Shown here: in pieces, positions 1 through 10,450 of the stretch
Layout of the letters: each line of letters opens with the position of its first letter
Position numbering within the stretch: position 1 is the stretch's first letter
Origin: an uncultured Verrucomicrobiae bacterium
GTDB lineage: Bacteria > Verrucomicrobiota > Verrucomicrobiia > Palsa-1439
Reading direction: 5' to 3'
NCBI GenBank assembly: GCA_963712025.1
Contig: CAVQGJ010000010.1
Coordinates: 262,886-326,885, forward strand
DNA length: 64,000 nucleotides
Position numbers and translations under genes: made by a program
The notes under the pieces: model-generated
The model's database searches: none
The model's input: only the letters and a program-made list of their open reading frames with translations
What the model was told of the DNA's origin: nothing

Positions 1-556
1 GGCTTCTTCCTTGAGATGGTCCATCACCTCGTCAAACGGCTCGTGGTCGTCCTTGCCGAGCTTCTGCACGCCCATGACGACGTCGCCGTACATCTGCACG
101 AACCGGCGATAGCAATCCCACGCCCAACGCGCGTTGCCTGATTTCTTGGCGAGCACTTCCACCGTCTCGTCGTTCAGACCGAGGTTCAAAATCGTGTCCA
201 TCATGCCGGGCATCGACTCCCGCGCGCCCGACCGCACCGACACCAGCAGCGGGTCCTGGCGGTCGCCGAACTTCTTGCCCGGTGACCGTTTCGAGCTTCG
301 CCAGCGCCGTGTTCACCTGCTCGGTCAACACTTTCGGGTACGACTTCTTGTTCGCGTAATAGTAGGTGCAGACTTCCGTGGTGATCGTGAATCCCGGGGG
401 CACCGGCAACCCGATCCGCGTCATCTCATGCAGGTTCGCGCCTTTGCCGCCGAGCAACGGCTTCTGTCCGCCATTGCCGTCGGCCTTGCCACCACCAAAG
501 AAATAGACGTACTTCGACGACTTCTTGACTGAACTTTTTGACTTCTTCGTAGCCAT
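1..556 (-). CDS. ppdK: Pyruvate, phosphate dikinase, N-terminal part; gene continues beyond the window edge. Reading frame is broken by one extra base near 277-282.
   Basis: N-terminus MATKKSKSS...[45 protein letters not shown] is canonical PPDK. After ...LAKLETVTG the frame is lost; shifting by one base restores [37 protein letters not shown]. Confidence 0.85.
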
Positions 557-620
557 GTTCGTGAGCTTCCTCTATGTGAGTTTGTACTGCCTGATCAGAG
601 GCAGGAGCCGATTTTCCAAA

Positions 621-1244
621 TCAACGGGGGTAACGCCACAGCCACTCTACCAAACCCGCCCCCCCTGTCAACGCACTTTCGGCATTGGCGGTGTAGCGTG
701 CGCTGTCCCCAGCGCATCCGGCTACCTCGTTAAGCGACTTCATCAATTCACGCACGCGCTTGCCGAGTTCGGTGATCTTTTCCCGGTACTCCATGCGTTC
801 GTCCCCGAGATGGCGTAACGGTTCCCAGTCGACGTATTGCCGCTCAAGGATAATGCGGACGATCTCGTCGGCCTTCTTGGCTTTCGGATCGTCAAGTTGA
901 TCCGGGCGCACGTAGATCAGCGGCAGGATTAGATCGGTGCGCTTGCGCTCCTTCTCGTAAGCGGCGAAATCAACGAACTCCTTGCGACAAGGCTCGCTAA
1001 ACAGGTAGCCCGGGGTTACGACGGGAATAAAAAAGGCGGCATCAACTAGTCCCTTGTCGATGGCCTCCTCCCATCGCTGTCCCCACTGGATCTGGTCTAT
1101 GTCCTGCCAAATGATGATTTTTTGTCCGGTCAGCGTTCCGATCTCATGCTCAAGATTGACACGCAATTTGCTGAGGTAGTCCCCATCGTTCTTGTTGTCG
1201 AGGTGCCGGTAGCTAAAGAAACCCATCATGGAAATTGATTTCAT
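621..1244 (-). CDS. Standalone TIR-domain protein, 207 aa: TIR core plus a charged tail of about 80 aa.
   Basis: MMGFFSYRHLDNKND...IIIWQDIDQIQWGQRWEEAIDKGLVDAAFFIPVVTPGYLFSEPCRKEFVDF..LILPLIYV matches bacterial TIR motifs: FxSY, W.D, the SxxC..E helix with a putative catalytic Glu, and a hydrophobic LIPI-like strand. GC is about 53%, lower than the flanks. Confidence 0.6.
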   Translation of the reverse strand: MKSISMMGFFSYRHLDNKNDGDYLSKLRVNLEHEIGTLTGQKIIIWQDIDQIQWGQRWEEAIDKGLVDAAFFIPVVTPGYLFSEPCRKEFVDFAAYEKERKRTDLILPLIYVRPDQLDDPKAKKADEIVRIILERQYVDWEPLRHLGDERMEYREKITELGKRVRELMKSLNEVAGCAGDSARYTANAESALTGGAGLVEWLWRYPR

Positions 1245-1368
1245 AGGGCGTGCTTAGTCCTCATTCCGAGATGATCGACAGGGCATCACAACGTAACGTC
1301 ATGCTGCCGATTGTAGTCAGTCCGAGGCCTTTCGGCAAGCTCGCTGCCGTTTCCGCGCGTCCCTTGTA

Positions 1369-1989
1369 CTATCTCCGCCACCGCCGCGAATTCTTGCCGC
1401 GATGAATGCGGACGGCGTAGCGCGCCTTCGCTTCCTTCACCTGAAACCCGATCTTGCGGCGTTTCGGTTCGGGCGGGGTGAGAAGTTGACGGATGGCTTC
1501 GAAGAGGTTGCGGATCGACTTGTCGTGGCCTTCAAATTTGCGCTCCAACTCGACCAGCTTCTGCGCGAGGTCCCGATTCGACGCCAGCATCTCGCGCAAC
1601 CGCACGAACGCGCGCACGACCCGAACGCTGGCTTGTACCGCCACCGGGCTGTTGAGCACACTGGCCAACATGATCGCGCCGTGCTCGGTGAAGACATACG
1701 GCAGTTTCCGCCGCCCTCCATGCTGAGGGGTGTCCACGGACGTCTTCCGTCTTCCTAAACTTGAAGTCGCAATTTGCGACTTCAAGTTTGCAACCTCTTG
1801 GCGCGTAAGCAGAAACGCAAAATCAGGCGGGAATCGATCAGCGTTGCGCCCGACCTGCTCGTTCAATCGCTTCGTTGTGACGCCATAGATCTCGGCGAGA
1901 TCAGAGTCGAGCATCACTTTCTGGCCGCGAATCAGATAGATCAGTCGTTCAATTCGTTCGACGGGCGCAACGGCCTTGTCGTCGCTCAT
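1369..1989 (-). CDS. ORF6N / KilA-N-like domain protein. The ORF is open up to 2121; the likely start is M at 1989.
   Basis: IERLIYLIRGQKVMLDSDLAEIYGVTTKRLNEQVGRNADRFPPDFAFLLTRQEV ... LPYVFTEHGAIMLASVLNSPVAVQASVRVVRAFVRLREML is the characteristic ORF6N domain signature. Confidence 0.7.
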   Translation of the reverse strand: MSDDKAVAPVERIERLIYLIRGQKVMLDSDLAEIYGVTTKRLNEQVGRNADRFPPDFAFLLTRQEVANLKSQIATSSLGRRKTSVDTPQHGGRRKLPYVFTEHGAIMLASVLNSPVAVQASVRVVRAFVRLREMLASNRDLAQKLVELERKFEGHDKSIRNLFEAIRQLLTPPEPKRRKIGFQVKEAKARYAVRIHRGKNSRRWRR

Positions 1990-2141
1990 TTGGCCGCCCA
2001 GTGTAGCGAGTTGCTTCCTCTTCGACAAGTACTCCCCACGGCGCCGTGCCGCGAGGTCACTGCCGGTCTGCTGCCTTGGCGCTCTCGCATTCCAGCCGAT
2101 CCTGTGAGAGATTTGTGCCATTCGGATAGGAGGACGAATCG

Positions 2142-3014
2142 ATGCGTTTGCAAAACAAGATCGCAGTGATCACCGGCGCCGGCACCGGCATCGGTGAAGC
2201 CATTGCTCACAAGTTCGCCCGCGAAGGCGCTCGCCTGCTCTTGAATGGCTTGCCGGGCGATCCGGTACAGGATGTCGCCCAGGCGATCATCAACGCCGGC
2301 GGTCAGGCGGAAGTCCAGCTCGGCGATGTCGCCGAAGAATCCGCGGCGCAAGCGTGCATCGATGCGGCCCTTCGTCGATATGGTGGCCTGGATGTGCTGG
2401 TGAACAACGCCGGCATCTTCATCGCCATCGTCGAAACGCAGGATTACCGCATCCAGGATTTCGACCGCACCCTGCGCAACAATCTCCGCACCGCCTTTCT
2501 CATGACCAAATTCGCCTTGCCTCATTTGCAGAAAAGCCGCGGGAACATCGTGTGCATGGGGTCCGAGGCGGGATTCAACGGCTCGCCGCGCTGCACGCCC
2601 TACGGCGGCACCAAGGGCTTCTTGCACGCGTTCGTCGCGGGCGTCGCCATCGAGCAGGCCAAATATGGCGTCCGCGCCAACTGCGTCTGTCCCGGCGCCA
2701 TCGACACCGCTTGGACCCGCGCCGGCAAAGGGCCGATGAGCGAGGCGATGGCCGATTCCATCAACAACGGAGTGCCCCTCGGCCGCCGCGGCACACCGGA
2801 GGAAATTGCCAACGTCGTCGCATTCCTCGCCTCCGACGAGGCGAGTTATGTCACCGGAGCGCGGTGGCTGGCCGATGGCGGCGTCACCCCGGCCAAGGGA
2901 AGTCCTGGACAATATGTGCCCGATCAATTGCGCCGCGCCCCGACGGGTGTGTTGTCATTGCGCCATTCGCACGACGGCGAGAATGGGAAGGAACTCTATC
3001 GCGCAGCCAAATAA
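2142..3014 (+). CDS. SDR-family short-chain dehydrogenase/reductase
   Basis: TGAGTGIGEAIA Rossmann motif, NNAG, catalytic YGGTK (YxxxK); 290 aa. Confidence 0.9.
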   Translation: MRLQNKIAVITGAGTGIGEAIAHKFAREGARLLLNGLPGDPVQDVAQAIINAGGQAEVQLGDVAEESAAQACIDAALRRYGGLDVLVNNAGIFIAIVETQDYRIQDFDRTLRNNLRTAFLMTKFALPHLQKSRGNIVCMGSEAGFNGSPRCTPYGGTKGFLHAFVAGVAIEQAKYGVRANCVCPGAIDTAWTRAGKGPMSEAMADSINNGVPLGRRGTPEEIANVVAFLASDEASYVTGARWLADGGVTPAKGSPGQYVPDQLRRAPTGVLSLRHSHDGENGKELYRAAK

Positions 3015-3049
3015 GACCGGAAGCCGGTAGGCCCGTCGCCCGCGAAAAG

Positions 3050-3123
3050 TGGAGCGGGCGATGGGAATCGAACCCACCTCACCAGCTTGGAAGGCTGGCG
3101 CATTACCACTATGCTACGCCCGC
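3050..3123 (-). tRNA. tRNA-Gly (anticodon TCC), 74 nt with encoded CCA
   Basis: The reverse complement reads GCGGGCGTAGCATAGTGGTAATGCGCCAGCCTTCCAAGCTGGTGAGGTGGGTTCGATTCCCATCGCCCGCTCCA: a 7-bp acceptor stem, anticodon loop CTTCCAA, and T-loop GGTTCGATTCC. Confidence 0.85.
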
Positions 3124-3201
3124 GCTCGCGCCGCCAACGTACACCAGCCGTCGCCAGAGCGTCAAGCGCAAGCCCCCCGACCGGGCAGTCGTCCGACCGC
3201 G

Positions 3202-4521
3202 TCACAACACACAGCACGGCGCCATCACGGCGTCGGGCATTCCGTGCAAAATCTTTTTGTTGGCCGGGCAAATCGTCGCCAGGATGCCGCCCAGTTTGGC
3301 GTCGTCGCCCACCACGAAGTAGTACGGACACAACCGCACGCGCGCGCTGAACGGGCGCACTTCATCGGTCTCGAAATCGACGTACTGCGCGTCGAACAAT
3401 TTCGAGTTCTCGAATCTCTGGAGGATGAATGGATGCGTGGCGAACCCGCTCAGCGCCTGCTCAATCGCTTCCGCCCACTCGCTCGCCGGCAGATCGTGGC
3501 CGACGTACACGCCGCGGCTGCCCCACGCCCGGTCGCTGAAGCCGGAGATTTTCAGGACCAGTTCGCGCTGCTTTTGGGAAAACTTCGCCATGTCGCGCCA
3601 GTCGTGGATGCCGAGTTCGGGAATCACCGCGTGCGGCGGCAATGGCGCGGGATCAAAAATCCATGTGTACGGCAGGACCTCCCGCAAGACCGCGAGCGTC
3701 TCGCCGCCGAGTTGCTCCCGCCAGAACGCGCGCAATTGCTCCATCCACAGGAAGGCGAAGAGCATTTTCTCCTCAAGCTGGGGCTTGAATGGCGGCGTCA
3801 CATGCGCCTCGCCGTGCGCCGCGGCATCCATCAACGCCTTCGCATTCGGCACGTTCGGCAAATCGAACAACTCAAAGAACCGGTAGACGACCGCGGTTTT
3901 GTCGAACCCTGTCAACTCCTCCGGGCGCACAACGCGGAACCCGACCTGCCGTCCGAGCCATTCCATTTCGGGGCGATACGTCGCGGCTTCATCCGACACC
4001 ACCACGACCGCCAGCGCCTCGCCGCTTTTCGCTTCCGCGCGCAAAACGGCGTCGAATCCCTCCATCATCCCGTGCGTACCGCCGACAATCGGGTCTCCCA
4101 ACTCGCCGTACGTCTTCCCGAGCCAGCCGGTCAGGCCGATGCCGCCCGGCACCGAATCGAGTTCGGCGAGGAAAAAATGGTCGTTGGTGAGGATCACGTC
4201 GGGACGAATCACGCGCGGAACATGACCCTTGAAGCGGCCGAGACGGGAAAACTCGATCAACTCCTTCGGCTTGCCCGCGTCGAGGTAGTCCGCGATCCAC
4301 GAGGGCAGCTTGCCCTCGACGCTGTGCCGGTACATCACGTTGGCGGCGCGGTAAAACGCCAGCAGATGCGGCCCGAGCGCTTCGAGTCGGGTGACGATGT
4401 CGCGGGAGAGCGGGAAAGCTTCCGGCGAAATTCGCCAGGTCGCGCCGGCAAACAAACCGCCCGCTGGCAGTTGATCGCGAACGTATTGCGCCCGCTGCGA
4501 CGGTTTGGCGTCGGTCATCAT
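3202..4521 (-). CDS. Uncharacterized 439-aa protein; tentatively ATP-grasp-like, glutathionylspermidine-synthase type.
   Basis: Single clean ORF ending 3 bp from proA. Internal ...[18 protein letters not shown]... weakly resembles the NKxxLxxLW motif of GSP-synthetase-like ATP-grasp enzymes; no strong signature recognised. Confidence 0.45.
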
Positions 4522-5763
4522 TCCCGCAATTGGCCGTCGCCAACGACAACGAACTTGTGGCTGGTCAATTCCTCCAGGCCCATCGGGCCTCGGGCGTGGA
4601 TTTTGTCCGTGGAAATCCCAATCTCCGCGCCAAACCCGTATTGTGCGCCGTCAGCCAGGCGCGTGCTGGCGTTCCAGAACACGCTCGAGCTGTCCACTTC
4701 GCGCAGGAATTTTTCGGCGGTCGCCTTGTTGCCCGTGACAATCGCATCGCTGTGGGCCGACCCGTATTTCGTGATGTGGTCGATGGCCTCGTCCACGCCG
4801 TTGACGACGCGCACGGCAAGAATCAGGTCAAGATACTCCGCGTACCAATCGGCTTCGGTCGCCGAACTTGCATTGGACACGAGCTTACGCGTCCGGTCGT
4901 CGCCGCGGAGTTCGACCTTGTTTTCCGCGAGTGCTTTCGCCACACGCGGCAGAAATTTGTCGGCGATCTTGTCGTCGATGAGCAGCGTCTCGATGGCGTT
5001 GCACACGCCGGGCCGCTGGCATTTGGCGTTGATGACGATCTTCTCCGCCATGTCGAAATCGGCGTCACGGTCGACGTACACGTGGCACACGCCCTTGTAG
5101 TGTTTGATGACGGGGATGCGTGATTTTTCCGCCACGGCGCGAATCAATCCCTCCCCGCCGCGCGGGATGCAAAGGTTGATCAGGTCATCGAGTTTCAGTA
5201 ACTCGTCGATAGCGGCGCGGTCCGTCGTCGGGACGACCGTGATGCTGTTCGGCGGCAGCCCGGGCACATTCATCGCCTCGGCGATGGCGAGGTTGCTGTG
5301 AGATCGCCTCCGAACCGCCGCGCAGGATCACCGCGTTGCCGGTCTTGAAACACAGGCACCCGGCGTCGGCGGTCACGTTCGGGCGCGACTCGTAAATGAT
5401 CAGGATCACGCCGATGGGCACGCGCACTTTCCGAATGCGAATCCCGTTCGGACGCGTCCATTCGTTGATGGTTGTCCCCACCGGGTCGGGCAAAGCCGCC
5501 ACTTCGCGGACGCCCTTCGCCATTTCCGCAATGCGTTTGTCGGTAAGCGTCAACCGATCGAGCATCGCCGATGAAAGCCCCGACTTCTTGCCCGCATCGA
5601 GATCCCTCGCGTTGGCCGACTTGATCGCGGCAGCGGATTTTTCGATCCCGTTGGCCATGGCCCGCAGCAGCGCGTTCTTTTTGTCCGCGTCAAACTTCGC
5701 GAGCGCGCGCGAGGCATCCCGCGACCGCTCGGCCAACAATCGTATCTGTTGTTTCAAATCCAT
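4518..5763 (-). CDS. proA: Gamma-glutamyl phosphate reductase; frameshifted by one extra base near 5298-5301.
   Basis: N-part (ORF 5185-5763): [53 protein letters not shown]-part (ORF 4518-5273): [45 protein letters not shown]. Removing one base joins GGSEAI(H)[16 protein letters not shown]. Confidence 0.9.
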
Positions 5764-6834
5764 TTAGAGGATCACCATGTCATCCCGATGAATCACCACA
5801 CCCGTGGCCGACTTGATTTGGATGCCGCCAACCTTCGTCAGGCCGCGCGCAAATTCAACCTGATTCTTGTCGCGGACGCTGACGAGGTCGCCTTCCTCGA
5901 ATTTCCCATCCGACGAAACTATCCCTTTGGCCAGCAAGCTTTTACCCTTGGCGCACAGGGCCTCTTTCGCGCCATCATCGACCACCACCACGCCGGCGGG
6001 ATGTTGGAAAAACGCAATCCAGCGCTTGCGGCTCGCCAATTTGTCCGCGTGCGGCAGGAAGATCGTCCCGACCTCGTCGCCGGCCAGGATGTCGCGGAGA
6101 ATGTTCGCGCGCTCGCCATTGGCGATGACGAGCGGGATGCCGGCGCGCGTCACGATCTTTGCCGCGTCGATCTTCGACTTCATCCCGCCAACGCTCGTCG
6201 TGCGGTCCGTGTCGCCCGCGAGCGATTCGATCTCGCGGGTGATTTCGGGCACGGCGGGAATGACGCGGCCTTCCCCTTCCAGCAATCCCTCGACATGCGA
6301 GAGGATGACCAGCAAATCCGCGTCGATGAGCGTCGCCGCCAGCGCGCCGAGCCGGTCGTTATCGCCGAACTTGATTTCCTCGACCGCGACCGTGTCGTTC
6401 TCGTTGATGATCGGCACCGCGCCGTGCCCGAGGAGCGTGGCCAGCGTGTTATGCGCGTTGAGGTGGCGCGTCCGGTCCTTCAAATCGTCATGGGTCAGTA
6501 AAATCTGCGCGACGGTAATGCCGAATTTCCCGAACAACTCGTCGTACACGGCCATCAATTTGCTCTGGCCGATGGCGGCGGCGGCCTGGAGTTCGTCGAG
6601 CCGTTTCGGGCGCTGTTTCAGGCCAAGCTCGGCCATGCCCGCGCCGATCGCGCCAGACGACACGATGATGATCTGCTTTTTCAGTTCGTGGAGCGTCGCG
6701 ATCTGCGCGACCAACCCCTCGATCTGCCGCGCCGAAAGATGGTTCTGCGCATCGGTGAGCAAACCCGTCCCGAGCTTGATGACGATGCGGTTCACCTTGG
6801 CGAGTATTTCGTGGCGGAGTTTCATAAGAGCCAT
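5764..6834 (-). CDS. proB: Glutamate 5-kinase with C-terminal PUA domain
   Basis: IVIKLGTGLLT...IIIVSSGAIGAG...VPIINENDTVAVEEIKFGDNDRLGALAATLIDADLLVILSHVEGL; it lies directly upstream of proA on the same strand. Confidence 0.92.
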   Translation of the reverse strand: MALMKLRHEILAKVNRIVIKLGTGLLTDAQNHLSARQIEGLVAQIATLHELKKQIIIVSSGAIGAGMAELGLKQRPKRLDELQAAAAIGQSKLMAVYDELFGKFGITVAQILLTHDDLKDRTRHLNAHNTLATLLGHGAVPIINENDTVAVEEIKFGDNDRLGALAATLIDADLLVILSHVEGLLEGEGRVIPAVPEITREIESLAGDTDRTTSVGGMKSKIDAAKIVTRAGIPLVIANGERANILRDILAGDEVGTIFLPHADKLASRKRWIAFFQHPAGVVVVDDGAKEALCAKGKSLLAKGIVSSDGKFEEGDLVSVRDKNQVEFARGLTKVGGIQIKSATGVVIHRDDMVIL

Positions 6835-7750: not shown

Positions 7751-8930
7751 ATGCCTTCTGTCATCTTAAAAAAGGGCCGGGAACATCGCCTCTACGCGGG
7801 CCATAGCTGGGTGTACTCGGGCGAGATTGCCGACATCACCAGCAACCCGAAAGACGGCGACGCCGTCGACATCCGCGACCACAAAGAGCGCTTCATGGGG
7901 CGCGGACTGCTCAACACCCGCTCGCAAATCACCGTCCGCCGGTTCACGACGCAGAAAGAGGAGATCGACAGATCATTCTTCGCCCGCCGCATCGAGGCGG
8001 CGCTGGAATACCGACGCGAAAACACGTCCATTGCCGATGCGGAAGCGTTTCGGCTGGTGTCCACGGAGAGCGACCAGGTGCCCGGACTCATCGTCGACCA
8101 GTACGGCGACCACGTCGTCTTGCAGGCGCTCACGCTCGGCATCGATCAGCGCAAGCAACAGATCATCGAGGTCCTCCGCGAGATCGTTCAGCCGAAGGCC
8201 ATCGTCGAACGGAGCGACGTTCCCAGCCGCAAGCTGGAAGGGTTGGAGGAAACGAAGGGCGTGCTCGTCGGCGAGACCGATGCGGTCGTCCGCGTGCAGT
8301 TCAACCAGTTCTCCATCGAGGTCAACCTGCTCGAGGACCAGAAGACGGGTTTCTTTCTCGACCAGCGCGACAACTACGCCGAGGTCGCGCGCCACTGCGC
8401 GGGCAAACGCGTGCTCGATTGTTTCACCTACCACGGCGGGTTTGCGCTGGCGGCGGCAGTCGGTGACGCCAAGAGCACCGAGGCCGTCGAGATTTCCGAT
8501 CAGGCCGTGGCCCGGGCGCGCAAGAACGCCGAACTCAACGGGCTGACCGGGCAAGATCGAGTTCGTGTGCGCCAACGCGTTCGACGTGTTGAAGAAATAC
8601 GATGTCGAGAAGCGCCAGTACGACGTGATCGTGCTCGATCCGCCGTCGTTCACGCGCACGAAACAGAACGTGGGCGACGCGCTGCGCGGGTACAAGGAAA
8701 TCAACCTGCGCGCGCTGAAGATGCTGCCGCCGGGCGGCCTGCTGGCGACGTTCACCTGCTCGCACCACATCGATGCCGAGCTGTTCAAGTCCGTCGTGCT
8801 CGATGCCGCCGCCGACGCCAAGAAGACGGTGCGTCTCGTGAAAGTGCTCACCCAATCGCCCGACCATCCGATCCTGCCGGCAATACCGGAGACGGAATAT
8901 TTGCGGGGGCTGTTGCTGGAGGTGATGTGA
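7751..8930 (+). CDS. rlmI: 23S rRNA (cytosine-C5) methyltransferase, RlmI-like (PUA + class I SAM MTase); frameshifted by one extra base at about 8547-8551.
   Basis: N-part: ...PGLIVDQYGDHVVLQ..LDCFTYHGGFALAAA..NAELNGLTG. The frame then switches, and ORF 8565-8930 gives (GK)IEFVCANAFDVLKKY..YDVIVLDPPSFTRTKQNVGDALRGYKEINLRALKMLPPGGLLATFTCSHHI. Confidence 0.85.
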
Positions 8931-10450
8931 TGACGCAGGCGGTCGAACCGAAGCTCCGTGAATTGAAGAATCGGTTGGTGGAGATCGACGATCTGCGGCG
9001 CGCCTCGGCGGTGCTGGGTTGGGACCAGGCGACGTATATGCCGCCCGGCGGGGCGGAGGCGCGGGGTCGGCAAACGGCGACGCTGGACCGGCTGGCGCAC
9101 GAGAAGTTCACCGATGCGGCGATTGGGCAACTGCTGGACGATCTGAAGCCATTCGAGGAATCACTGCCGTACGATTCCGATGAAGCGGCGTTGATTCGGG
9201 TGACCCGGCGCGAGTACGAGCGGGCGGTGAAAGTGCCGTCGGCGTTCGTCGCGAAATTCAGCGCGCACGTCGCGGCCACGTATGAAACCTGGGTGAAGGC
9301 GCGGCCGGCGAACGATTTTGCGTCGGTGCGGCCAATGTTGGAAAGGACGATCGAGTACAGCCGTGAGATGGCGAACTTTTTCCCCGGTTACGATCACATT
9401 GCCGATCCCCTGATTGATTTCGTCGATTACGGGATGAAAGCGGCGACCGTGAGCGCGTTGTTTGCGGAATTGCGGAAGGATCTCGTGCCGCTGGTGCAGG
9501 CGATCACGGCCCAGCCCGTGGCCGATGAGTCGTGTATCCGCCAGAGGTTTCCCGAGGCGGAACAGCTCGCGTTCGGGCGCGAGGTCGTGAAGCAGCTTGG
9601 CTACGACTTCAATCGGGGACGACAGGACAAGACGCGGCATCCGTTTCAAACGACATTTTCGCTGGGCGACGTGCGGATCACGACGCGGGTGAAGGACAAC
9701 GATCTCGGCGATGCGCTGTTCAGCACGATCCATGAGGCGGGTCACGCGATGTACGAACAGGGGATTCGGCCCGAACTGGAAGGCACGCCGCTGGCGCATG
9801 GGACGTCGTCGGGCGTCCACGAAAGCCAGTCGCGGCTGTGGGAGAACGTCGTGGGACGTGGTCGCGGCTTCTGGGAATATTTCTATCCGAAATTGCAGGC
9901 GGCGTTTTCGCTGCAACTCGACGACGAGCCGCTCGATACGTTCTATCGGGCGATCAACGAGGTCGAGCGCTCACTGATTCGCACTGATGCGGACGAGGTA
10001 ACGTACAATTTGCACGTGACGATCCGGTTCGACCTCGAATTGCAATTGCTTGAAGGCAAACTCGCCGTGCGCGATTTGCCGGAGGCATGGCGGGCGCGAT
10101 ACAAGAGCGATCTGGGAATCGCGTCGCCTGACGACCGCGATGGCGTGTTGCAGGACGTGCATTGGTACGGCGGACAGATCGGCGGGGTGTTTCAGGGGTA
10201 CACGCTCGGCAACATCCTCAGCGCGCAGTTTTACGGGGCGGCAACGAAAGCGTTGCCGGAAATTCCCAACCAGATTGCGCGCGGCGAATTCGCCACGCTT
10301 CACGGGTGGCTCCAGGAAAACATCTACCAGCACGGCAGCAAGTTCACCGCGAACGAGATTGTGAAGCGAGCGACGGGGCAAGATCTAACGATTGAGCCGT
10401 ACATTCGGTATTTGCGGACGAAGTACGGGGAGTTGTACAGACTCGGATAG
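8930..10450 (+). CDS. Carboxypeptidase Taq (M32) family metallopeptidase
   Basis: Start MTQAVEPK overlaps the rlmI stop (TGATG). HEAGHAMYEQG zinc motif, HESQSRLWEN and IRTDADEVTYNLH are typical of the M32 family. Confidence 0.9.
   Translation: MTQAVEPKLRELKNRLVEIDDLRRASAVLGWDQATYMPPGGAEARGRQTATLDRLAHEKFTDAAIGQLLDDLKPFEESLPYDSDEAALIRVTRREYERAVKVPSAFVAKFSAHVAATYETWVKARPANDFASVRPMLERTIEYSREMANFFPGYDHIADPLIDFVDYGMKAATVSALFAELRKDLVPLVQAITAQPVADESCIRQRFPEAEQLAFGREVVKQLGYDFNRGRQDKTRHPFQTTFSLGDVRITTRVKDNDLGDALFSTIHEAGHAMYEQGIRPELEGTPLAHGTSSGVHESQSRLWENVVGRGRGFWEYFYPKLQAAFSLQLDDEPLDTFYRAINEVERSLIRTDADEVTYNLHVTIRFDLELQLLEGKLAVRDLPEAWRARYKSDLGIASPDDRDGVLQDVHWYGGQIGGVFQGYTLGNILSAQFYGAATKALPEIPNQIARGEFATLHGWLQENIYQHGSKFTANEIVKRATGQDLTIEPYIRYLRTKYGELYRLG

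Follow-up and report, generated by a model that had tools for sequence, protein, structure and literature searches.

The locus examined here raises the question of whether a TIR-domain gene and an ORF6N gene that lie side by side form a defence system or are neighbours by accident. Both are found near the start of a 64,000-nucleotide stretch of DNA from an uncultured Verrucomicrobiae bacterium (assembly GCA_963712025.1, contig CAVQGJ010000010.1, positions 262,886 to 326,885; hereafter the window, meaning the whole stretch), between a tRNA-Gly(TCC) gene and the gene for pyruvate phosphate dikinase (PPDK). An earlier interpretation made without database searches, which we call the sequence-only reading, had proposed the two genes as a NADase-based defence pair or mobile islet. 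A TIR gene beside a phage-type DNA-binding gene near a tRNA does look like a new defence pair; the relatives of this genome show instead an accidental neighbour and a truncated gene, a caution that adjacency in a single genome is not to be taken as a system. The account that we consider likely is that a variable slot between tRNA-Gly and PPDK holds a truncated, most likely inert TIR remnant without a partner in ORF6N, and that the ORF6N gene is a separate unit which carries a palindrome.

To establish what the TIR open reading frame (ORF) encodes, we compared its 207-residue product with domain families, solved structures and its own relatives. The protein matches Pfam TIR_2 with 41.3 bits (cut-off 28) and contains the motifs FFSYRHLD, WQDID and SEPCRKEF, as the sequence-only reading had stated. 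An exhaustive HMMER search returned 3723 relatives, 2383 of them below 1e-10, and in an alignment of 150 representatives three residues were invariant, namely Glu89 (in CRKEF; 150/150), Cys86 and Gly55. The window protein retains every invariant and near-invariant residue of the family. When a profile of 30 family domains was run against the PDB it matched L6/L7, AtTIR, Cat1, TcpB, AbTIR, RUN1 and Roq1, with E-values of 4e-9 to 3e-4 for L6, AtTIR, Cat1, TcpB and AbTIR. The family motif C-R-x-E-L aligns with CLMEL of flax L6/L7, and Glu89 corresponds to the Glu of that motif, a position which we take to be the catalytic glutamate of TIR NADases at the start of the alpha-C helix. The conserved Glu previously noticed in SEPCRKEF is borne out by this alignment. 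An alignment-based AlphaFold (AF2) model (pLDDT 87.9, pTM 0.84), which supersedes a single-sequence model of pLDDT 44.6, predicts a TIR fold, and its top Foldseek matches in the PDB are exclusively TIR domains (TM 0.5-0.6).

Likeness to individual defence systems is weaker than likeness to the domain. PADLOC gave weak matches to PDC-S66 (30 bits) and ThsB1 (17 bits, E = 6e-4), the NCBIfam model of Thoeris type III ThcB4 matched at E = 0.055, and the Aga-TIR and retron-TIR models also matched weakly. A word-index protein search for close homologues returned the TIR protein itself alone, and a metagenome scan for close relatives gave one weak 36-residue match and no donor or full-length version. 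The nearest relative (P0002; gene L092:1720-3465) is 62% identical and has 581 residues, with a TIR domain followed by a right-handed beta-helix. The other 149 listed representatives are all longer than the window ORF (232-933 residues). Ten representatives were scanned with Pfam; five combine TIR with a C-terminal beta-helix, STAND NTPase, HEAT or unassigned tail, and five are tandem TIRs. The window TIR shares its fold and its C-x-x-E glutamate with the fused, NAD+-consuming TIR effectors (TIR-STAND and TIR-repeat proteins; SPARTA TIR-APAZ, ThsB and AbTir have been solved). It differs from them in that the scanned homologues continue from an N-terminal TIR into beta-helix, STAND NTPase or HEAT regions or into further TIRs, whereas in the window ORF 34 codons of promoter DNA stand in for the missing C-terminal region, and in that it lacks partner genes and matches the ThsB, Aga-TIR and retron-TIR models weakly.

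The origin of those 34 codons was traced by comparison with six close relatives within Verrucomicrobiia (L002, L005/L006, L007, L010, L011 and L012). Homology of the ORF to its family stops at residue 173-176 or so, family conservation at about residue 170, and tblastn of P0002 on the window ends at nt 723. In blastn comparisons the right edge of the genome-specific segment falls at 680-683 for L005, L007, L010 and L011 and at 723-724 for L002 and L012; the left edge falls at window positions 1300-1381 across the six relatives. A multiple alignment shows that 681-724 is present in L005, L007, L010 and L011 as a diverged version of the same sequence. The segment between the edges (725..1299) has no homology to L002, L005, L007, L010, L011 or L012, and tblastn of the TIR ORF on the relatives yields matches limited to residues 159, 175 or 188 to 207. 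The stop codon of the TIR ORF, TGA, sits inside CGTTGATTTGG, which is invariant across the seven aligned genomes, and the promoter TTGACA-16-TAGAGT is kept in all seven. Because this promoter and CGTTGATTTGG are common to all seven genomes, the last 34 TIR codons are best read as PPDK promoter DNA. TIR homology thus ends where DNA common to TIR-less relatives begins (724), which argues that the ORF is a 3'-truncated fragment. These comparisons point to a 3'-truncated piece of a TIR-plus-sensor gene, and not to an intact gene; the TIR itself would comprise residues 1 to about 173. Upstream of the PPDK promoter the relatives also keep semi-conserved non-coding blocks, which the window no longer has. 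A stable hairpin (GCGCTG-GGGA-CAGCGC within TAGC...GCTA; 696-722; DNA fold -11.9 kcal/mol, z = -3.1) marks precisely the point where cargo meets PPDK-upstream DNA, and L002 and L012 have it as well.

The slot between ORF6N and PPDK holds different cargo in other genomes. L002 has ORFs of 190 and 144 aa, L004-L006 a PDDEXK_4 nuclease (PADLOC PDC-S26, 90 bits) with a 206-aa ORF, L007 a 257-aa ORF, and L011 and L012 a DUF6869 gene with small ORFs. Cargo across genomes measures 0.6-2.3 kb and is of lower GC (54-58%). Consistent with the claim that the TIR gene is AT-richer than its surroundings, GC is 55.1% in the TIR ORF and 53.2% in its window-specific part, compared with 61.9% in neighbouring core genes.

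These data allow us to propose a mechanism. The stretch from tRNA-Gly to PPDK would be a recombination-prone variable locus in one genus-level group of Verrucomicrobiia, in which the ORF6N gene and the PPDK promoter are fixed and the DNA between them is swapped from genome to genome. The window would have received some 575 bp of DNA that is foreign and lower in GC, namely the 5' portion of a gene whose TIR domain is normally fused to a C-terminal sensor or scaffold. On the simplest reading the slot once contained a TIR-X gene, whose 3' part was then removed by a deletion or recombination along with adjoining non-coding DNA. The cut, directly behind the final TIR helix, would have brought the gene up against the PPDK promoter region, so that the frame continues through 34 unrelated codons to a chance stop. 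The 207-aa product would be an orphan TIR with its NAD+-cleavage residues kept, as their conservation suggests, and its signal-sensing or assembly part presumably lost. We infer from the sequence that the ORF is most likely inert or decaying, and its NADase chemistry and loss of regulation are likewise put forward as predictions.

Several observations weigh against this account. The 173 codons of the TIR domain are intact and preserve every invariant residue, the truncation point in the model comes neatly behind the final helix, the spacer common with L005 has a promoter-like site (1338..1310) upstream of the ORF, and TIR-only family proteins of 190-209 aa exist as solitary genes at three other loci. 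The TIR ORF could therefore be expressed and active. It might then be a working stand-alone TIR NADase, transcribed from the conserved promoter-like site after ORF6N and kept because a lone TIR domain is useful, whether it acts directly in defence as an effector or makes a signal for a partner encoded elsewhere; that another occupant of the slot, the PDDEXK_4/PDC-S26 nuclease, is itself a defence candidate is consistent with such a role. We regard this as unlikely, since there is no close homologue to show purifying selection, promoter DNA supplies both the tail and the stop codon, the vicinity has no partner gene, and the other listed representatives are longer, those scanned having an extra C-terminal domain or further TIRs. 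It should also be considered that 621-724 in the relatives could be the leftover of an ancestral 207-aa TIR gene instead of native PPDK-upstream DNA. One solitary TIR-only homologue (L088:5001-6105; 197 aa) runs over the end of an aldo-keto-reductase gene that is itself shortened (187 aa), and the family's other TIR-only genes may likewise be what is left of insertions.

The quality of the assembly, which is imperfect and shows several apparent frameshifts (PPDK, proA), is a further point against the truncation account. The junction might be an artefact of long-read metagenome assembly, produced by a chimeric join or by collapse of the region, and the apparent frameshifts in PPDK and proA and the RlmI/M32 fusion fit indel-prone sequencing. 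Indel errors do not produce 575 bp of inserted foreign DNA bordered on either side by clean homology. Six relatives are colinear with the flanks, and the TIR frame stays open, with full conservation, for 173 codons. We consider an artefact of this kind scarcely credible.

We evaluated the proposed pairing of ORF6N and TIR from both sides. The upstream gene is indeed an ORF6N gene on the same strand (Pfam ORF6N, 113.7 bits), and it lies upstream of PPDK in all six relatives as it does in the window, with homologues at the same place that are 79-87% identical in five relatives and 73% identical in the sixth. None of the six has a TIR in the slot between ORF6N and PPDK. Searching 87 ORF6N loci with the TIR protein (tblastn) revealed no TIR domain, and Pfam assigned none to the 70 genes directly downstream of ORF6N homologues in many phyla; these 70 comprise 15 ATP-synthase gamma subunits and assorted housekeeping genes, among which PADLOC recognised one Cas3 and little else. 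In the reverse direction, ORF6N was absent beside the TIR homologues at four of four loci, three being solitary TIR-only genes and the fourth P0002. The neighbours of the window TIR are PPDK, ORF6N, the SDR gene, the tRNA and a 439-aa protein, which include no ThsA-type partner (SIR2, Macro or SLOG), as had been noticed before; ORF6N is the only PADLOC match among them, and no nucleotide cyclase or other signal generator was found among the neighbouring ORFs.

The view that an ORF6N sensor or regulator and a TIR effector make up a two-gene NADase system, carried as a mobile islet at tRNA-Gly, draws on their shared strand, the 124-bp gap with no terminator predicted between them, the catalytic-type Glu of the TIR, the match of ORF6N to the defence candidate PDC-S05, the low GC of the TIR segment and an integrase beside the same tRNA in L002. 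Against it stand the failure to co-occur at any of the loci above, the fixed position of ORF6N in TIR-less relatives, the separation of tRNA and ORF6N in most relatives, the lack of an integrase or tRNA-end repeat in the window, and a TIR ORF without its native 3' end. This view is already largely refuted and we hold it to be very improbable. As far as comparative sequence can tell, ORF6N and TIR are not a defence pair and their adjacency appears accidental.

The tRNA-Gly was evaluated separately as an integration site. Homology to L005 breaks at 3040, so the variable region starts about 10 nt past the tRNA-Gly 3' end. The SDR segment (2038-3039, 1 kb) is absent at this place in the relatives, which makes the suggestion that SDR is cargo a reasonable guess; it is a lineage-specific insertion, but its GC of 63.6% is not atypical and low GC is limited to the TIR segment. 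No integrase ORF lies between window positions 1 and 3123, and the direct repeat expected from the tRNA 3' end did not appear, there being no second copy in the 64 kb with up to 3 mismatches allowed. In L002 a gap of 77 nt separates the tRNA-Gly(TCC) 3' end from a tyrosine-integrase-like gene (2720-4093, 407 aa), an arrangement that indicates integration of an element at this tRNA. The block proB-proA-439aa-tRNA is inverted relative to ORF6N-PPDK in L002, L010 and L011; the tRNA is therefore not next to ORF6N there, and the adjacency of tRNA and ORF6N is missing in most relatives. The 439-aa and ProB proteins of L002, L005 and L007 are 89-98% identical to those of the window. It is plausible that tRNA-Gly is an integration site in this group, as the hotspot idea held, with the variable region and the L002 integrase in its favour and the missing integrase and repeat in the window against it. 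Absence from the relatives holds for the TIR segment and the SDR insertion, not for ORF6N, and ORF6N and TIR did not arrive as one island. Like core-gene hotspots and tRNA-linked islands, the slot has conserved flanks, differing lower-GC cargo, one defence-candidate cargo and an edge at the tRNA 3' end; it differs from them in that the cargo is tiny, integrase and att repeats are lacking in the window, and a conserved ORF6N gene sits mid-region.

We next turn to the ORF6N gene, whose domain we take to belong to the KilA-N group. Its product matches three PADLOC models of PDC-S05, PDLC04869 (181 bits), PDLC04856 (168 bits) and PDLC04849 (111 bits). The exact 206-aa product is in the public record, a longer 250-aa ORF runs to 2121, and the real gene is probably the 206-aa one. 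At least 8000 relatives of the protein were found, with up to 87% identity, and when each species was represented by a single genome, a scan gave over 500 with 48-87% identity, spread over Verrucomicrobiota, Nitrospirota, Bacteroidota, Planctomycetota, Acidobacteriota, Zixibacteria, delta-proteobacteria and others. ORF6N stands 0-7 nt upstream of atpG-atpD-atpC at no fewer than 15 loci of Verrucomicrobiota; it directly follows atpA at all four loci where the upstream gene was scanned (L017, L022, L028 and L059), and at three loci (L042, L054 and L086) it stands between two Proton_antipo_M genes of nuo/mrp type. Such operons are a surprising setting for a gene that is a candidate in defence. 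A search of 50,697 phage records gave only four weak ORF6N matches, all in unannotated gut phage records. One PDC-S05 representative with a RhuM domain is reported to have lowered plating of T7 and T5 about 1000-fold (bioRxiv 10.1101/2024.09.26.614923). That tested member is described with a Virulence_RhuM domain, whereas the window protein consists of ORF6N with a tail of helices; housekeeping genes, and not defence islands, surround most of its homologues. On the account favoured here ORF6N is a separate, single-gene unit in the candidate defence family PDC-S05.

Diverged ORF6N copies often stand in tandem, with three at L013 (1343-3379) and two each at L058, L071, L078, L084 and L069, and ORF6N fragments too are common beside intact genes, as at L005:7735-7834 and L011:7051-7245. 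The upstream region of L011 contains a relic palindrome of an L012-type allele. The tandem copies and fragments, with this relic, suggest allele replacement at the locus.

The palindrome of the ORF6N gene lies outside the earlier claim and is in our view the item worth following. Positions 1757-1789 form a perfect 16+1+16-nt palindrome, AAACTTGAAGTCGCAA A TTGCGACTTCAAGTTT, inside the coding sequence of the ORF6N domain, where it encodes NLKSQIATSSL (DNA fold -16.7 kcal/mol, z = -7.8). A palindrome with at least 10 of 15 complementary pairs, one centre and a homologous place is present in 81 of 81 ORF6N genes examined; 74 of them have at least 12 pairs, and the best elsewhere in the same genes is mostly 8-10. 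Three gut-phage ORF6N homologues of 43-50% identity carry it too. We examined covariation in a gap-free alignment of 78 sequences and 15 pairs (1170 cells). Paired cells amount to 90%, compared with 75.8 +/- 0.7% in shuffles and 27-42% in slid registers, and 12 of the 15 pairs vary on both sides. Two-sided changes occupy 182 cells against 66.8 +/- 6.4 in shuffles, and one-sided changes of G-U type occupy 16. The near absence of G-U-type intermediates and the 1-nt spacer suggest that the symmetry belongs to the DNA. For the same reasons (16 one-sided cells of 1170 against 182 two-sided, and the spacer) an RNA hairpin is less likely, and a terminator role was rejected since no T-run follows the palindrome.

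The encoded peptide follows the palindrome DNA. Where the left arm has TCA for TCG, a silent substitution, the right arm has GTG for GCG and with it Val for Ala, giving SQIATS or SQIVTS, and further arm variants encode RFQFGTS, KCQFGIS and IFQIGIS. In five homologues the core GGTCGCAAATTGCGACC is read in another frame (EVVANCDHL), and the proteins are colinear on both sides. That the palindrome is kept even where this alters amino acids, and in either of two reading frames, points to a cis-acting element invisible to annotation pipelines. Outside ORFs, 23 extra copies were found in 774 kb, compared with 0-1 in shuffles; 13 of the 23 lie 31-239 nt upstream of an ORF6N start and most others in further ORF6N copies, and about ten loci bear such upstream copies. 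An upstream copy is no closer to the intragenic copy of its own locus than to those of other loci (8.6 vs 8.5 of 12 positions). Rfam detected no family at the palindrome or elsewhere in 400-3300 except the tRNA, and literature searches on ORF6N, on KilA-N with palindrome and on the palindrome sequence found no paper describing the element. Scanning viral contigs for the 17-nt core returned 87 stretches, and the 44 matches examined (42 outside ORF6N genes, a good many of these being hairpins of terminator type from AT-rich phages, and 2 inside) were uninformative. In AT-rich viral contigs (L093, L109, L110, L117 and others) GGTCGCAAATTGCGACC occurs as a terminator-like hairpin stem with T-runs, unrelated to ORF6N.

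Mutation alone, by template switching on a quasi-palindrome, might keep the repeat perfect and would yield Watson-Crick-only changes; this is hard to square with its persistence across phyla and reading frames. The comparative data point to a probable protein-binding site, and our best guess is that a dimeric KilA-N-type protein would bind it. We tentatively propose, as a possible and not as the probable explanation, that the palindrome is the ORF6N protein's own recognition site, embedded in the stretch that codes for its DNA-binding domain and at some loci joined by further copies in the promoter region, and that it acts in self-recognition or autoregulation in the manner of BstA and aba; it could also be a recombination point for exchanging ORF6N alleles and cargo such as the TIR fragment.

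The nearest documented parallel is BstA, an abortive-infection protein of prophages with a KilA-N-like domain; its cognate DNA element, aba, overlaps the bstA gene and turns the protein off (bioRxiv 10.1101/2020.07.13.199331, Owen et al.). By description the two cases share a KilA-N-type protein of a defence-linked family and a gene that holds a short DNA element, and the ORF6N element appears constrained as DNA and not as peptide or transcript. They differ in that aba is 63 bp long, lies at the gene start and has terminal direct repeats, whereas the ORF6N element is a perfect palindrome of 25-35 bp placed midway in the ORF6N domain. A second domain, at the C-terminus, and a prophage home set BstA apart from the window's ORF6N protein, which has 206 aa with a helical tail; the ORF6N genes are chromosomal, often in atp or nuo operons, and no cognate matching was seen between ORF6N palindrome copies. 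If the palindrome is indeed the protein's own binding site, the idea of a built-in DNA self-mark would extend from BstA and aba to a large, unstudied family, and the palindrome would give a simple, testable handle on the role of the ORF6N gene. A looser parallel than BstA is offered by binding sites within other genes. Intragenic auxiliary operators include lac O2 in lacZ and gal OI in galE, and parS sites lie inside parB/spo0J. The ORF6N palindrome is likewise a palindromic putative binding site in a coding sequence, with extra copies upstream; it differs in lying inside the gene of the presumed binding protein itself, whose sequence it constrains.

Table 1. Features of the tRNA-Gly to PPDK region, in window coordinates unless a locus is named, with the basis of each assignment.
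Feature	Coordinates	Strand	Basis
PPDK 5' part, conserved right-hand anchor of the slot	32..556	-	Pfam PPDK_N
TIR ORF, 207 aa, apparent chimera of TIR domain and read-through tail	621..1244	-	ORF list; Pfam TIR_2
TIR ORF tail, aa 174-207 and stop codon, in probable PPDK-upstream DNA	621..724	-	blastn breakpoints, alignment
Sigma-70-like PPDK promoter TTGACA-16-TAGAGT, within TIR ORF tail	644..671	-	promoter scan 10/12
TIR-domain coding part, aa 1-173, genome-specific DNA	725..1244	-	family conservation, model, tblastn
Window-specific segment of about 575 bp, 53.2% GC, in variable ORF6N/PPDK slot	725..1299	.	no homology in 6 relatives
Glu89 codon, catalytic-type	about 978-980	-	family alignment
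Spacer downstream of ORF6N, common to window and L005/L006	1300..1368	-	blastn
Promoter-like site TTGCCG-17-TACAAT facing cargo, in spacer	1338..1310	-	promoter scan 9/12
ORF6N (KilA-N-type) gene, 206 aa, C-terminal helical region, PDC-S05 member	1369..1989	-	Pfam, PADLOC, public record
Perfect 33-nt palindrome in ORF6N coding sequence	1757..1789	.	inverted-repeat scan
Second window-specific insertion, SDR-bearing	2038..3039	.	no homology at this place in relatives
SDR gene	2142..3014	+	Pfam adh_short_C2 194 bits
tRNA-Gly(TCC)	3050..3123	-	ARAGORN; Rfam tRNA 71.8 bits
Palindrome positions, window and other loci	window 1757-1789; L002:7917; L005:7812, 7891; L011:5821/5894/5934; L039:5763		
ORF6N in F-ATPase operon: L015-L017, L019, L020, L022, L024, L025, L027, L028, L032, L035, L046, L065	about 6001-6560 in most		

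Beyond the tRNA, the 439-aa protein (3202-4521, minus strand) adjoins proA in all relatives with 89-92% identity and has no match among Pfam, NCBIfam or PADLOC families. Several housekeeping genes of the window look frameshifted or fused. PPDK (32-556) shows an apparent frameshift after about residue 95 when compared with the intact PPDK N-terminus of L004/L006, proA (4518-5763) appears as two ORFs, and at 7751-10450 an RlmI-like part is fused to an M32 carboxypeptidase-like part. These anomalies are probably indel errors of long-read metagenome assembly and not pseudogenes, and similar gene splits are visible in L001/L002.

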